Sequence record: MK327931.1
Strand: one strand, 5' to 3'
Length of the DNA stretch: 64,000 nucleotides
DNA from: Escherichia phage vB_EcoM_G17
In this document: piece by piece, positions 30,442 through 49,229 of the stretch
How positions within the stretch are numbered: position 1 is the stretch's first letter
Layout: each line of letters starts with the position of its first letter
Translations under genes and position numbers: made by a program
Notes under the pieces: model-generated
Told to the model about the DNA's origin: nothing
What the model saw: only the letters and a program-made list of their open reading frames with translations
Database searches by the model: none

Positions 30442-30542
30442 TATATAATTCTCCGTTTTATTTGTTAATCAAAAAATGTTTTTATGTAAGATTACTACAA
30501 GCACCATTATATCTCAAAAATGATGCTTGTCTCAATTTTTTA

Positions 30543-30839
30543 TCAGTATTTTGTATTCCAACGTTGAAGATAAGGCTTATCAATTGTAGAACTCATGCCA
30601 ATTTTATCGCGTAATTTTTTCAAGTCTTTTAATGTATGTACATCATCGACAAAAACAACTTTACGCTTTTTCACAAGAGTGTAAACATCAGCAATCTCTC
30701 CGTCAACTTCCACTGAACCAGTGCGAGTAAAACCCGCACCAATTAGAACTACTTCTTCATCATTATCATATGCTAGTACAGAATTAATGATACCATTACC
30801 TTCTAATACTTCACCAATACGCTTATATATATTACTCAT
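30543..30839 (-). CDS. Hypothetical protein (98 aa)
   Basis: ATG start overlaps the stop of the small upstream ORF (ATGAGTAA). Confidence 0.45.
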   Translation of the reverse strand: MSNIYKRIGEVLEGNGIINSVLAYDNDEEVVLIGAGFTRTGSVEVDGEIADVYTLVKKRKVVFVDDVHTLKDLKKLRDKIGMSSTIDKPYLQRWNTKY

Positions 30840-34996: not shown

Positions 34997-36607
34997 TTAT
35001 TGTTGACGTACTGTTTCCCAGTTACCATTTATTTGCATTTGAACATAGCGATAACTAATTCGTTCTAAGTGAGTGCCTGAACTACCATTAACAGAAATCC
35101 ATACGCCATCCATAAATGCACCTTCTGGTGTATATGTCCATGAAGAATCAGGTATTTTACTTGTTTCAATACGTGCACTCAAACGAATACTTTGTACGTT
35201 ATTAGTACTAATTTGCAAAGTAACGTTGCCACTAGCATCAGCAGCAGTACCGTTAATTGAACGAACAATATTTTTACCACCAACAGTAGCTGAGTTGTTA
35301 GAAACAGTTAATGATGGAGCAGCTAACGTACCAGAAGAGTTTACAGTAACTTCTGCTCCACCGGAACGTAATCTCAATGTATTATTTGAAGAGTTATGAT
35401 ACACTGCCGCACGCTCACCACCGCTTGCGTTACGGAAATATAGAACTAATGATGTATCATTTGACTTAATTGACGCACTGTTTGCAATAGTCAATGAACC
35501 AGTCATTGTATCACCAGTTTTTAGTACATAACGAGTGTTTGCAACTTTTTCACTCAATGCGACGTTAGATTCAGCAATGTTATATAGATATGCAACGTTA
35601 AAGTGTTCCACATCAATGTTACTAATACCATGATAGTGTGGTTGGTTTCCACCAAGTGTGTTAGTGTTTCCACTAAATGAGTGAATGTGGTCTGGTGCTT
35701 CGTTAATGTTATTGATTACAGTTGGTATACCGTTATCATTACTTGAAGTTAACGCATTTAGACCACTACGGTCCATACCTTTTAGTGCTTGACTATGACC
35801 ATGACGACCAGCAGCCCCTGTGGTCCCACTAAAACTAAATGAGTGTGATGGTAATTGGGCAACACTTAATACTGTGCCGCTAATATTACCGCTACTACCA
35901 ATAACACTATCAGTTTTAGTTACACCTGATGTGGATATCCCTTTTAAGTACGCGTTTTGGTTAAGGTTTGGTACTTGTTTGGTAATTGTACCATTTTCCC
36001 CCTCCCATTGCCACCACATACCATCAGCAAAACACCAACCGTCAGACGTTTTCCACGGAGCACCTTGTGAACCGTTTCTCCCACTTTGTCCATTCGATTG
36101 TCCTGACATTTGTTCACGTATACTAGCAACAGATTGACCAGAAGTCAATGAATATTGTGTAATAGCACCAGGTTTAAGTGAAGTGTAAAGACCAGTTGGA
36201 CCAGAACCACCACTAGAAGCAGTAGGGAATACAATGTTTAAGTTTGTTCCACTAATACTTGCACTAGGAACAGTACTACTACTATAAGTTACACTTTCTA
36301 CTTTTAAATTTAGTTTTCTATTTACTTCATCAAGTGAAATTCTAATTGGTTCTAAAATGGTATCAGTATCGTATACTGCAATCCAACTAGTACCGTTATG
36401 ATACTTCAAAACTAACTCGTTTCTATCAAAGACCATTGCACCTTGTTCACCAGTTGGTAAAGTTTGTACTGGTATGATAACTGATGACGAGTTAAAACGA
36501 ATAGGTCTTGGGTTAGTTGGTGTACCACCAAGCACTATTAGTTCTAAAGATCCATTAGCACCAGTACTGGTCATTGTATCCAATGGGTTATTAAAACTTA
36601 TGCTCAT
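34997..36607 (-). CDS. Tail fibre protein with tail-collar-type domain
   Basis: 536 aa, Ser/Gly/Thr/Asn-rich; ...LSVAQLPSHSFSFSGTTGAAGRHGHSQ... resembles the tail-collar motif; followed by a Tfa-like gene. Confidence 0.7.
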   Translation of the reverse strand: MSISFNNPLDTMTSTGANGSLELIVLGGTPTNPRPIRFNSSSVIIPVQTLPTGEQGAMVFDRNELVLKYHNGTSWIAVYDTDTILEPIRISLDEVNRKLNLKVESVTYSSSTVPSASISGTNLNIVFPTASSGGSGPTGLYTSLKPGAITQYSLTSGQSVASIREQMSGQSNGQSGRNGSQGAPWKTSDGWCFADGMWWQWEGENGTITKQVPNLNQNAYLKGISTSGVTKTDSVIGSSGNISGTVLSVAQLPSHSFSFSGTTGAAGRHGHSQALKGMDRSGLNALTSSNDNGIPTVINNINEAPDHIHSFSGNTNTLGGNQPHYHGISNIDVEHFNVAYLYNIAESNVALSEKVANTRYVLKTGDTMTGSLTIANSASIKSNDTSLVLYFRNASGGERAAVYHNSSNNTLRLRSGGAEVTVNSSGTLAAPSLTVSNNSATVGGKNIVRSINGTAADASGNVTLQISTNNVQSIRLSARIETSKIPDSSWTYTPEGAFMDGVWISVNGSSGTHLERISYRYVQMQINGNWETVRQQ

Positions 36608-36638
36608 GTATAAATCCCTTTATGATTAATATATACTA

Positions 36639-36646
36639 TATTTATT
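36639..36646 (-). promoter_or_regulatory. Late-promoter-like AATAAATA element upstream of the tail fibre gene
   Basis: Plus-strand tatttatt, 32 nt upstream of the tail fibre ATG. Confidence 0.3.
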
Positions 36647-36647
36647 C

Positions 36648-36956
36648 CTATAGCAAGTCGTTATCCATATCATCCCATACGGAATCAATAATGTTGGCTG
36701 CTATCTTTTTAGACATTTTAAACCACTCGGTATTGGGTTGTCTAGTTGCATTCATCTGCTTAAGCCTTTTATGTATTTCTTTTTCAGCCAAACGTGCATC
36801 ATCAAAATGAACTTCATGATATACTTCAAAGTCACGAAATGGTGTAGCAGTCTGATACGTTCTTAGACGTTCTGTCATTTCTGATTTTGAAGTAAAACCA
36901 ATTTTAACATACTCAGGCCATGCAGAATTTATTATAACATAACATATCTGTGACAT
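36648..36956 (-). CDS. T5orf172 / GIY-YIG-like domain protein (stand-alone)
   Basis: Start placed at MSQICYVIINSAWPEYVKIGFT (GGAGA SD); CYVII...KIGFT...RL..Y pattern typical of the T5orf172 family. Confidence 0.5.
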   Translation of the reverse strand: MSQICYVIINSAWPEYVKIGFTSKSEMTERLRTYQTATPFRDFEVYHEVHFDDARLAEKEIHKRLKQMNATRQPNTEWFKMSKKIAANIIDSVWDDMDNDLL

Positions 36957-46856: not shown

Positions 46857-47693
46857 ATGGCTATGAATCCACTTGCTAAGTACACTAAAATTGAAGAGAT
46901 CAGTACTAAGTTAGTTACAAACGGCGTTATTCCTTATAAAGAAGGAGTTCTAGGTCCAAAAGGTGTCAAATGTGGAGTTTGTGCACGTAGTGCACGTGAT
47001 GAAATGACACTTAATACCCCCGATATGTTACTAAACGGAGATGCAGTATCCCGTGTTATTGAAAACTGTGTTCCTAATGTAATTGACGCTGATGAGTTGT
47101 ATGTAAATGACGTTGAAATGCTTCTTATTGCTATTAAAGTTGCTTCCAAAGAAGAAACATATGATATTAACGTTGTATGTCCTGAATGTGAAAAAGAAGG
47201 TCGATTTGAGCGTAATCTATCATATCTTCTTGAAACTGCACAAGCATTTGAAGAAATCCCATCAATTGATTTAGATAATGGACTCCGTTTAGAATTTAGA
47301 CCACTGACATGGAAAGAATATTCATCGTTTGCTGAACGCATGTTCAGTGAGCAGCAGAAGACTAAGTTTCTTGAAACTGCTGATATTGATAAAGATGAAA
47401 AAGTAAAAATATTTTCTGAAGTATTTGAAAACATGGCTCAACTTAACTTCGACATGATCGGTGGAGTTATTGCAAAAATTATAACACCAGATGGTGATGA
47501 AGTAGTTGAAAAAGAATTTATTAATGAATGGCTTGGACAACAATCGAAGGGAGTACTTAAACTAATTCGTGAAAAAATGGATGAAGTACTTGAAATTGGA
47601 GTATCACATAGTATGGAAGTAGAATGTGATGGATGTAATCATCAATGGGAAATTGATGGACTAAAATATGATCCTAGTCATTTTTTCGAGTAA
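46857..47693 (+). CDS. Hypothetical protein with two CxxC pairs
   Basis: 278 aa; CGVC...CPECEKEG and CDGCNH; TGGAGA SD; preceded by a late-promoter element. Confidence 0.5.
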   Translation: MAMNPLAKYTKIEEISTKLVTNGVIPYKEGVLGPKGVKCGVCARSARDEMTLNTPDMLLNGDAVSRVIENCVPNVIDADELYVNDVEMLLIAIKVASKEETYDINVVCPECEKEGRFERNLSYLLETAQAFEEIPSIDLDNGLRLEFRPLTWKEYSSFAERMFSEQQKTKFLETADIDKDEKVKIFSEVFENMAQLNFDMIGGVIAKIITPDGDEVVEKEFINEWLGQQSKGVLKLIREKMDEVLEIGVSHSMEVECDGCNHQWEIDGLKYDPSHFFE

Positions 47694-47902
47694 TGCTTCT
47701 CCAGTCATCTCCTGAAGAAATACAAGAAGTACTGAAGGAGATAGAACTGAATAAGTCAGAAATCAAAAATGCACTAATGGAATGTTCTGTATATATGGAT
47801 AACATTGACTATGGAACACTCCTTAATATGCCATTAATAGATAGAGACTTATTAGTTAAGTCTTTTAATAAAAAAATTAAAAAACAAAACGAGAAGCACT
47901 AA
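47693..47902 (+). CDS. Hypothetical small protein (69 aa)
   Basis: Start overlaps the upstream stop (TAATG); followed by a strong terminator. Confidence 0.45.
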   Translation: MLLQSSPEEIQEVLKEIELNKSEIKNALMECSVYMDNIDYGTLLNMPLIDRDLLVKSFNKKIKKQNEKH

Positions 47903-47911
47903 TTTTCATAT

Positions 47912-47938
47912 AGCCAGCACATTGTTGCTGGTTTTTTT
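47912..47938 (+). terminator. Rho-independent terminator
   Basis: ccagca-cattgt-tgctgg stem followed by a run of seven T. Confidence 0.7.
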
Positions 47939-47939
47939 G

Positions 47940-48737
47940 GTTTTAAACTACAGAATTATTTGAATTGAATTATGAAAGGATTAATTTTAATATTATTGGA
48001 TTCATCTAACTCATTTCATTCGTTAGCTGAAGAATATTCGTTACTACGTAACTCATATTCATTTAATTAAATTAATTATAAAGAACTTTAAAAGATTTAA
48101 TACTTGACGGGATTTGTTGAGGACATTTTCATCCCCCCGCAGGGGAATGAAGACAATAAAAAAGAGACAATGAAGTCTCTATTTCTTGACGCTGATGGTT
48201 TCAGCATTTATTGTATTGCGAATTTCTTAAAAATATATTAAGAACGAAAGCGGGTTGCTCTGTTTCTCTCTATCGCAGTCATGTGCAACGGTCGTCAGTC
48301 TTAATCATCCTGACACTCACCTGAAAGTCTATACAATCAAACTTCAGGCTGTTTATTAAAATCACTTAATAAACTCCCTTAGCAAATCTGGTAAGGTGCG
48401 ATCCTTATATGTCTATCGAGGAACTCTCTGTATGCTTATCGGAGTTCTTTATTGAGCCGCATTGCCGTGAGGGGTTCAAACTATGCCCACATCTAACGGG
48501 TTTCTTTTGCTCATCGCACTGTTGAACTGCTCATCTGCCATCTACATTTTCGATAGGATCAGGTTCTAATTTATATGCATTTCTGCATTCAACAGGATTG
48601 TCATTACTACAACAAACATTATAGCACAAACTTTAAAGTTGTCTCACTATTTTTATAAAAATATTCATTAAGTACTTAAAATATTGCAAATAACTAATCT
48701 ATAAATATTTTGATAACAAATAGTTTGGTGAGGAATT
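47940..48737. other. ORF-free, hairpin-rich intergenic region of about 0.8 kb
   Basis: No ORF of 60 aa or more on any frame; local GC about 40-50% at 48120-48540 against about 30% in flanks; several perfect short inverted repeats. No tRNA cloverleaf could be drawn. Confidence 0.5.
48700..48707 (+). promoter_or_regulatory. Late promoter TATAAATA upstream of the Endo VII-like gene
   Basis: Exact TATAAATA 31 nt upstream of the ATG at 48738; GAGGAA SD. Confidence 0.5.
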
Positions 48738-49229
48738 ATGAAAAAAAGATTAAAAGATAGTAAGGATGCTGCAAACTATCGAAACGAATTACTAAAGAAA
48801 CAAAATGGAATAGATCCTATAATTAAAGAACCAATAACTAAACCAGTACTGGATCACTACCACTATGGTAACCAACATTGTAGACAAGTTCTTCAAAATG
48901 AAGTCAATGCTTGGGAAGGAAAGGTACAAAACAGCTTCAATCGATATATGAAGCACTTAACTGATAAACCATTATATGAGGTACTCAGAAATCTTGCTGA
49001 TTACTTAGAGCGTAATAACAGCATTCCTGACGATGAACAAGTTATACATCACACTGCACTAACTGTGGATGTTAATAAGTTTAAAAGGCTTCCAGCAACA
49101 CAGCAAAACGCGATTCTGGAAGGGTTAGGAGTTGTCCCTGGTAGTAACACTACTGCTCGTGTAAAGCAAGCCAGAAAGCTGATTAAGGACGGTAAATTAA
49201 ATATGGTTGATATAAAAAAAGGGAGCTAA
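48738..49229 (+). CDS. gp49: Endonuclease VII-like Holliday-junction resolvase (T4 gp49-like), zinc ligands apparently replaced
   Basis: 163 aa. QNGIDPII / VLDHYHY / NEVNAWEGKVQNSFNR parallel T4 Endo VII QNGKCLIC / HLDHDHE / NLCNAAEGQMKHKFNR as recalled; the four Zn-ligand Cys positions read D, I, Q, V here. Confidence 0.55.
   Translation: MKKRLKDSKDAANYRNELLKKQNGIDPIIKEPITKPVLDHYHYGNQHCRQVLQNEVNAWEGKVQNSFNRYMKHLTDKPLYEVLRNLADYLERNNSIPDDEQVIHHTALTVDVNKFKRLPATQQNAILEGLGVVPGSNTTARVKQARKLIKDGKLNMVDIKKGS

Follow-up and report, generated by a model that had tools for sequence, protein, structure and literature searches.

A predicted gene for a large structured non-coding RNA in an intergenic interval of Rak2-like jumbo phages

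The 64,000-nucleotide (nt) stretch of Escherichia phage vB_EcoM_G17 analysed here (MK327931.1; hereafter the window, to which all positions refer unless another record or genome is named) contains at 47903-48737 an interval of 835 base pairs (bp) in which a comparative analysis has identified what reads as a gene for a large structured non-coding RNA of about 460-510 nt, encoded on the minus strand. As judged from the comparison of its copies, the element has been shown to be structured, non-coding and strand-specific, and to carry transcription signals. The sequence of the window agrees at 100% identity with Escherichia phage Sharanji (OR545507.1), a Rak2-like jumbo myovirus of the genus Asteriusvirus with a genome of 350,079 bp (window position = OR545507.1 position - 143,630). 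The original prediction had listed one or more structured non-coding RNAs, a replication origin or the remnant of a mobile insertion as candidates for this interval. The first of these is now strongly supported, as a single RNA gene and not several.

Covariation and predicted fold

The decisive evidence for structure is covariation, rather than the z score of single-sequence folding. A MAFFT alignment of 41 copies in RNA sense (A1), not fitted to any structure, was used; 43 sequences with a mean pairwise identity of 65% were left after removal of near-duplicates. RNAalifold predicted 67 pairs, 44 of them with compensatory changes, and a scan for stacked covarying pairs among all possible pairs of columns contributed three more helices, which cross others as pseudoknots. 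The curated structure comprises 16 helices and 82 pairs, with three pseudoknots. In A1, 96.6% of the cells are paired, compared with 76.8% when partners were shuffled and 36-43% when they were slid by 1-3 columns. Double-sided changes occur in 60 pairs (608 such cells, versus 162 in the shuffles), and none of 500 shuffles attained any of the five pairing measures; the pseudoknots are paired in 100%, 91.7% and 100% of cases. In 22 held-out copies, 63-95% identical to their nearest A1 sequence, 93.9% of the positions were paired, versus 35-42% with slid partners, and 36 new pair types appeared. About 100 positions are invariant, many of them unpaired.

The predicted elements of the fold, in the order of the RNA, are the following.

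48516-48595, minus strand: 5' domain, with P1, P2, P3 and the pseudoknot PKa
48595-48588 with 48525-48519, minus strand: P1, 7 of 8 pairs with double changes
48587-48583 with 48579-48575, minus strand: P2 hairpin, 5 of 5 pairs with double changes
48562-48556 with 48539-48535, minus strand: P3
48530-48528 with 48518-48516, minus strand: PKa, 100% paired, middle pair alternating U-A/A-U/C-G
48392-48513, minus strand: central domain, P4-P7, with invariant strands GAAACCCGU, CACGGCAAUGCGGC and GAUAGACAUAU
48513-48509 with 48457-48453, minus strand: P4
48499-48496 with 48468-48465, minus strand: P5
48447-48442 with 48426-48421, minus strand: P6 hairpin, 6 of 6 pairs with double changes, 3-4 pair types each
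48407-48404 with 48395-48392, minus strand: P7
48374-48381, minus strand: invariant unpaired motif UAAGGGAG, Shine-Dalgarno-like, from invariant alignment columns
48210-48349, minus strand: 3' domain, the most conserved part, with invariant strands CGACCGUUG and AACCCGC
48349-48344 with 48325-48319, minus strand: PKb hairpin, whose loop forms P8
48337-48331 with 48216-48210, minus strand: P8, 99.7% paired, 5 of 7 pairs with double changes
48315-48312 with 48296-48293, minus strand: P9
48289-48285 with 48258-48254, minus strand: PKc, 100% paired
48277-48273 with 48221-48217, minus strand: P11, 100% paired
48270-48266 with 48250-48246, minus strand: P12, 100% paired, internal G·U in 27 of 41 copies
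48243-48240 with 48228-48225, minus strand: P13
48191-48205, minus strand: 3' hairpin ending in the first CGUCA(A/G), GCUGA-AACCA-UCAGC in the window's copy and GACGA-CUAUCA-UCGUC in most copies
48128-48151, minus strand: G-run hairpin P14 UUCAUUCCCCUGCGGGGGGAUGAA, G run mostly invariant or nearly so, C side varying from C to U with G·U kept
48103-48116, minus strand: conserved 3' motif CAAAUCCCGUCAAG with the second CGUCA(A/G), from invariant columns; the alignment with the Escherichia coli island copy described below ends here

The five pairs of helix 16, the G-run hairpin, vary on one side only and are 98% paired, and columns G526-G528 are invariant. The 3' hairpin at 48191-48205 was left out of the pairing score because the register of its arms shifts among copies. 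The motif CGUCA(A/G) is found twice near the 3' end. The 3' domain alone is still recognisable by BLAST in Klebsiella RaK2-like phages and in partial metagenome matches. All five inverted repeats quoted in the original prediction are present, and each coincides with a feature kept in relatives: ccccgcagggg corresponds to P14, gaactc..gagttc to P6, atgcatttctgcat to P2, gagacaatgaagtctc to the hairpin that is followed by a U-run on the minus strand, and gctgatggtttcagc to the 3' hairpin. Three to six pair types were found at each position of P2 and P6.

An optional hairpin module, GUACAAUAUAGAUCCGUCCAAAAUUUG, is inserted at either of two positions of the alignment (A1 columns ~405-431 or ~567-597). 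It is absent from the window's copy and present in the Sharanji copies at 270, 326 and 81 kilobases (kb). The loop of this module contains in many copies the palindrome UUGUACAA, a possible kissing-loop dimerisation site as far as its sequence suggests.

With regard to strand, single-sequence folding gave z scores of -2.80 for the minus and -2.03 for the plus strand relative to shuffles, so that the hairpins are better than those of shuffled sequence; both strands fold with similar predicted energy, and the strand is not settled by energy. When G·U and A·C were counted on the automatically predicted pairs, the result (60 versus 84) gave no strand verdict. In the curated helices, with a strand-neutral criterion that retained the 60 pairs with at least two Watson-Crick types, 100 G·U were counted in minus sense against 16 A·C, an excess that points to the minus strand. 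The strand was decided by the flanks, whose reading in minus orientation revealed the signals described below.

The interval has no open reading frame (ORF) of at least 60 amino acids (aa) in the six frames, the longest having 45 aa. A six-frame scan of the assembled genome returned exactly 47903-48737, the longest ORF-free stretch of the window (the next has 167 bp) and the second longest of the 350,079-bp genome, so that the ORF-free stretch of 0.8 kb claimed from the letters has been borne out. No conserved ORF was found among the 41 copies, whose longest ORFs vary in strand, frame, position and length, an inconsistency which argues that the element is not coding. Likewise, no conserved start codon or ORF follows the Shine-Dalgarno-like motif UAAGGGAG, the ORFs after it differing in length, frame and presence among copies.

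Transcription signals, copies and synteny

The structure-bearing strand carries its own promoter, which is conserved in all copies, and a terminator is found in the window's copy (c1) and in some of the ortholog groups. The signals around c1 are the following.

48618-48647, minus strand: promoter of the putative RNA gene, -35 box GAGACA (48645-48640) and -10 box TATAAT (48623-48618) preceded by TG
48155-48611, minus strand: predicted primary transcript of c1, ~457 nt from the presumed start to the end of the U-run
48155-48180, minus strand: intrinsic-terminator-like hairpin AGAGAC-UUCAUU-GUCUCU followed by UUUUUAUU, from a terminator scan
47998-48060, minus strand: degenerate downstream module with two TAACGAAU repeats (attcgtta) and an imperfect hairpin (48001-48032)

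In the promoter scan this site showed 10 of 12 matches, with TG ahead of the -10 box, and transcription would start near 48611. All 43 non-redundant copies have TGGAAC, TGAAAC or GGGACA, a spacing of ~17 nt and TATAAT (TATACT once), usually with TG before it. The same class, TG(G/A)GACA, ~17 nt and TGnTATAAT, occurs at about 20 sites on the Sharanji minus strand, including 30491-30543 of the window. This site accounts for the sole weak match (48603-48656 versus 30491-30543) obtained when a second copy of the element was looked for in the window, where none was found. TGAAACG at -35 defines the 'divergent RpoD-like' promoter class of phage CBB, located upstream of DNA-synthesis genes (PMC5259590). 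The phage-wide class is the same as this TGAAACG class, which is on record for both CBB and GAP32. TTGACG boxes on the plus strand were considered as promoters of the element and rejected in favour of the minus-strand promoter; they may still act as weak antisense promoters.

In the ortholog group beside dam/gp543 (loci L047, L040, L028, L037, L031, L029 and L046) a strong hairpin with 6-7 U lies right after the -10 box and before the first helix, and a similar post-promoter hairpin was observed in loci L025, L054 and L050. Such a hairpin with its U-run would serve either as a terminator close to the promoter or as a hairpin that protects the 5' end.

The stem of the terminator-like hairpin at the other end differs in sequence among copies, with its pairing preserved, and the hairpin is present in the c1 group, in the fifth ortholog group and in the E. 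coli copy. The c1 transcript is predicted to reach ~509 nt, to position 48103, if the hairpin and U-run are read through.

Four copies with the same orientation are present in Sharanji, at 80.9-81.4, 191.7-192.3 (the window), 270.4-271.1 and 326.5-327.1 kb. They are ~70-80% identical and have long invariant blocks in common. Conservation in relatives, on which the original prediction had proposed to test the interval by comparing equivalent loci, was found: BLAST located the core (~48087-48582) in phages of Cronobacter, Pectobacterium, Serratia, Erwinia, Yersinia, Salmonella and Xanthomonas, where it is 70-76% identical and matches at 4-5 places in each genome, and Klebsiella RaK2-like phages retain part of it only. 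Two pattern scans of IMG/VR yielded 52 loci, 51 of them with one full-length copy each, and a metagenome scan gave 88 further stretches, nearly all with a copy or fragment. No match was obtained in an exact-pattern scan of 185,579 bacterial species representatives, nor did plasmids match the element. The family is specific to Rak2-like jumbo phages.

The copies constitute ortholog groups that are kept across genera, as determined by tBLASTn with the Sharanji neighbour genes, which indicates that the paralogues are ancient and that each has been retained. The c1 group lies between a 69-aa ORF and the gene for Endo VII in 16 loci, even where the flanking proteins are only 50-75% identical. Other groups are located beside dam/gp543, beside gp441-443 and near a sigma-factor gene, and a fifth group has no member in Asteriusvirus.

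Downstream of the element in relatives the motif ACGAA was counted 46 times, versus 8.8 expected, and its reverse complement twice. In most copies (L011, L018, L027 and others) ACGAA repeats ~20 nt apart and, after them, TTGAC and a palindromic spacer immediately precede the next gene on the minus strand. This ACGAA/TTGAC module may be a promoter of UP-element/operator type for the downstream genes. In the window's copy the module is degenerate and no co-oriented gene follows. Of the short direct repeats of the original prediction, all of which are present, attcgtta belongs here; it occurs twice (48018-48025 and 48036-48043).

Outside phages, a BLAST search of 5426 complete E. coli genomes found two chromosomes with a single full-length copy each. 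The copy of strain LR-29-1 (NZ_AP027515.1, 3478955-3479640; L148:11875-12552) is unannotated, and an identical one is present in NZ_CM130020.1. It sits in an island of ~10 kb between ffs and ybaA, which also contains an IS3-disrupted integrase, a resolvase and matches to the candidate defence system PDC-M45 (DuOB, DUF488, mSLOG-DUF4326; L148:14996-16727). A homologue of the DUF4326 domain was observed in Sharanji at ~287.1-287.4 kb. The island copy retains the phage-class promoter, all helices, the hairpin with its U-run and the 3' motifs. Its nearest phage counterpart (81%) is the copy at the Endo VII locus of Serratia phage BF, and the phage similarity of the island is limited to the RNA module, from the promoter to CGUCAG. 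Three co-oriented hypothetical genes follow it. The presence of this copy suggests an interaction at the RNA level between jumbo phages and host mobile elements.

Possible modes of action

The explanation that we favour, with a confidence that stops somewhat short of even, is a free-standing RNA acting through its fold. RNA polymerase would start near 48611 from the phage-class promoter, with its TGGGACA-like -35 and TG-extended -10 boxes. The nascent RNA would adopt a three-domain fold, with 16 helices backed by covariation and with three pseudoknots, which would hold the ~100 invariant nucleotides in loops and junctions, and the c1 transcript would end at the hairpin and U-run near 48155. 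The folded RNA would then bind a protein or a small partner, rather than act by antisense pairing or encode a peptide. A free-standing RNA is preferred because c1 looks like an autonomous antisense unit that has a promoter and a terminator to itself, because the invariant core is similar to that of RNAs which bind proteins or ligands and to that of ribozymes, and because the module appears to have moved on its own into the E. coli island.

Several observations weigh against it. The terminator-like hairpin is missing from the copies at the sigma-factor and dam loci, and the conserved G-run hairpin and CAAAUCUCGUCAG, which are found in all copies, lie beyond the terminator, so that the RNA may extend further, or a portion of the unit may function as DNA. 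The hairpin and U-run directly after the promoter in one ortholog group are accounted for by no model. No transcriptome of any Rak2-like phage was found in the literature searched, and start, end and expression are inferred. Moreover, each paralogue has long been at a fixed position, all copies share one orientation, and a co-oriented gene is located ~100-700 nt downstream in most contexts, including the E. coli island; a cis-acting role accounts for fixed sites, orientation and downstream genes no less well than action in trans.

A cis-acting RNA is the most serious competitor, a possibility to which we give about half the credence of the free-standing RNA. The RNA would act only on the polymerase or transcript that makes it, as a processive antiterminator like put of phage HK022 or as a long stabilising or regulatory leader, and transcription would pass through the hairpin and U-run into the long minus-strand gene arrays. 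The order of promoter, structured RNA, terminator-like hairpin and genes is that of antitermination systems, and the copies are spaced at 55-110 kb within very long blocks of co-directional genes. In the c2, c3, c4 and fifth groups, as in the E. coli island, the RNA is followed by a co-oriented gene, at the sigma-factor and dam loci there is no terminator between the RNA and the downstream genes, and action in cis only would explain why each copy has been retained at its own locus with the same invariant core. However, the c1 copy, kept in all genera, precedes two convergent plus-strand genes and no co-oriented one, and most loci have a promoter-like module in the interval from the RNA to the gene downstream. 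In addition, with its ~450 nt and three pseudoknots the RNA exceeds the known RNA antiterminators several-fold in size (put, ~70 nt; EAR, ~120 nt), and no Rfam family matches it, put and EAR being presumably among the models.

A role as replication-origin transcript, the form in which the origin of the original prediction would survive, is an unlikely but possible function of the RNA. The RNA would be a pre-primer with a persistent RNA-DNA hybrid near the 3' G-run and the AT-rich region, in the manner of ColE1 RNA II or of the R-loop origins of T4 with their middle-mode promoters, and the 4-5 copies would be origins of the 350 kb genome. Four to five dispersed, same-strand and positionally conserved copies are compatible with this, as is an invariant G6 run followed by an AT-rich stretch (guanine-cytosine content, GC, 0.23) at and past the 3' end, but AT-rich spacers are common here. 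The promoter is a member of the class that has been described ahead of DNA-synthesis genes, and the phage encodes RNase H and a T4-like replisome (PMC5259590). The conserved sequence past the terminator would make sense as DNA, and an infecting phage could replicate a host island that carries only the RNA module. On the other hand, GC skew tracks gene orientation and shows nothing at the four sites, the strongest selection acts on the ~100 invariant nucleotides and the pseudoknots, far from the 3' end, and neither an initiator gene linked to the element nor a plasmid carrying it was found. The T4 origins oriF and oriG consist of a middle promoter and an unwinding element, and T4 origin transcripts are not known to need an elaborate conserved fold. 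The 8-mer CTCGTCAG beside the G6 run, shared with the pMB1/ColE1 origin, was judged to be at chance level and was not used.

The remaining explanations have little to recommend them. It is very improbable that the pairing reflects a structure of single-stranded DNA in replication, recombination or packaging: covariation alone cannot separate RNA from single-stranded DNA, and the folding energy is similar on both strands, but a promoter conserved in all copies lies immediately upstream, the strand that carries it has a terminator downstream, helices of long range and three pseudoknots are typical of RNA, and the 6:1 ratio of G·U over A·C shows selection on one specific strand. That the region encodes one or several small proteins is scarcely credible, even though several records place short hypothetical ORFs in it, with 4-5 hypothetical proteins annotated in some, and c1 contains ORFs of 28-45 aa, since the longest ORFs of the 41 copies are inconsistent, substitutions follow base-pairing and not codons, and the frequent indels are not limited to multiples of three. 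Just as poorly placed is the remnant of a mobile insertion (a miniature inverted-repeat transposable element, an intron or a homing-endonuclease scar) suggested by the original prediction, which the multiple copies in the genome and the occurrence in an unrelated E. coli island could recall: each copy occupies the same syntenic site in distant genera and is thus ancient rather than recently mobile, purifying selection on the structure is strong, and no terminal repeats, target duplications or Rfam group I/II intron match were found.

Beyond the free-standing RNA as such, we tentatively propose, as a conjecture well below even odds, that the RNA could serve as the active component of a control device new to T4-related phages, a polymerase-modifying antiterminator/leader or an origin pre-primer, driven by a phage-specific promoter at 4-5 fixed stations. 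The ffs-ybaA island of E. coli would have captured the cassette of promoter and RNA beside PDC-M45, as an infection-triggered switch, decoy or hitch-hiking replicon against jumbo phages.

Genomic surroundings and relation to known RNAs

The neighbours of the region are the 69-aa ORF (47693-47902, plus strand) and the Endo VII-like gene (48738-49229, plus strand), the annotation of the latter being taken from related records. The two boundary features, both outside the putative RNA gene, are the following.

47912-47940, plus strand: intrinsic terminator of the 69-aa ORF (hairpin 47912-47933), from a terminator scan
48700-48737, plus strand: late-type promoter TATAAATA and ribosome-binding site of the Endo VII-like gene

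Both had been noticed from the letters. The terminator scan confirmed the hairpin at the left end (47912-47933), and at the right end the late motif TATAAATA (48700-48707), as described for phage CBB (PMC5259590), and the Shine-Dalgarno sequence GGTGAGGA ahead of the ATG at 48738 were read directly in the sequence. They had also been taken as the limits of the element, which cannot be maintained: they belong to the neighbouring genes, and the element is on the minus strand, antisense to both. The late promoter of the Endo VII-like gene diverges from the RNA promoter. Concerning composition, GC is 0.40-0.42 in 48100-48600 versus 0.23-0.25 in the flanks, and the genome is mostly at 0.31-0.39 per 5 kb; the core is richer than its flanks, as had been claimed, but only modestly above the genome average. 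No transfer RNA (tRNA) or transfer-messenger RNA (tmRNA) was found in the 64-kb window (ARAGORN was used for tRNA), and the tRNAs of Sharanji are at 93.7-98.0 kb, ~12 kb from the nearest RNA copy.

Other GenBank records of Asteriusvirus (PP886230.1, PQ330092.1, OR699282.2 and others) annotate 2-5 hypothetical proteins across 47903-48737, which are probably spurious, given that no ORF is conserved; UE-S1 (ON568341.1) has a 'repeat_region' inside it instead. Sharanji contains another cluster of long ORF-free stretches, 35444-36710 and several more between 22 and 36 kb (1267, 741, 621, 464 and 426 bp), without similarity to the RNA family.

A search with Rfam 15 (4227 models) gave no gathering-level match in the whole window. 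At E values up to 10, only terminator-like small-RNA noise outside the element or at its edges was obtained in 47850-48800, and at E values up to 5 no family recurred at the element in nine diverged copies. Rfam 15 presumably includes GOLLD, ROOL, OLE, HEARO, raiA, RNase P, tmRNA, 6S, introns, put and EAR. A resemblance by eye of AACAGAGCAACCCGCUUUCG to conserved regions of RNase P RNA had no covariance-model support and was dropped. No description of the RNA was found in the literature on Sharanji, CBB, phAPEC6 and PA5oct, in a jumbo-phage review (2026) or in work on structured phage RNAs; a list of 10,006 candidates (PMC10690425) was not compared.

The copies would thus represent a new family of large structured RNA, for which comparative support is good, and they mark four of the clearest regulatory landmarks in the 350 kb genome. 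The finding also corrects the 'hypothetical protein' annotations in some of the deposited genomes. Large and intricately folded RNAs are rare (ribosomal RNA, RNase P, group I/II introns, OLE, GOLLD, ROOL and raiA); each has revealed new biochemistry or stays a puzzle, and the new family adds another. The material is favourable, with more than 60 diverged sequences, three covariation-supported pseudoknots and ~100 invariant nucleotides, together with culturable hosts (E. coli K-12 with Sharanji, 121Q and PBECO4) and internal paralogues that permit genetic dissection.

Among known systems, put of HK022 and EAR are similar in layout, which in c1 and several ortholog groups places the RNA right after a promoter and ahead of an intrinsic-terminator-like hairpin, with long operons beyond. 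The new RNA differs from them in being five to six times larger, in its unrelated structure, in the lack of an Rfam match and in that c1 has no adjacent co-oriented gene. ColE1 RNA II and the T4 origins oriF/oriG share with it, in layout only, a promoter-driven transcript of several hundred nt with a G-run and AT-rich DNA near its 3' region; the copy number of 4-5 and the non-early promoter class (TGAAACG/TGGGACA) of the new RNA recall the T4 origins.

Long non-coding RNAs have been described in other large lytic phages: ncRNA001-004 of PA5oct, a distant relative of the Rak2-like group, are four RNAs defined by RNA sequencing, two of them abundant (PMC7318152), and ICP1 has one of ~800 nt (PMC7567579). 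They also occupy ORF-free gaps of several hundred bp. A search with nhmmer --max found no similarity to PA5oct ncRNA001-004 (one noise match, E = 1.7). Those RNAs have expression data and no reported conserved structure, whereas the new RNA is known by its structure.

The nearest kind are the large 'ornate' RNAs such as GOLLD and ROOL, which are common in phages and prophages and have been studied by cryo-electron microscopy (PMC12286853). Like them, the new RNA would have hundreds of nt, be multi-domain and pseudoknotted with many invariant unpaired nucleotides, and be phage-borne and non-coding. It differs in that ten copies gave no match to the covariance models at E values up to 5-10, and in that the frequent adjacency of GOLLD and ROOL to tRNAs contrasts with a 64 kb window devoid of tRNA. 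Distinctive of the new RNA are also its 4-5 syntenic paralogues per genome and its recognisable phage-class promoter.

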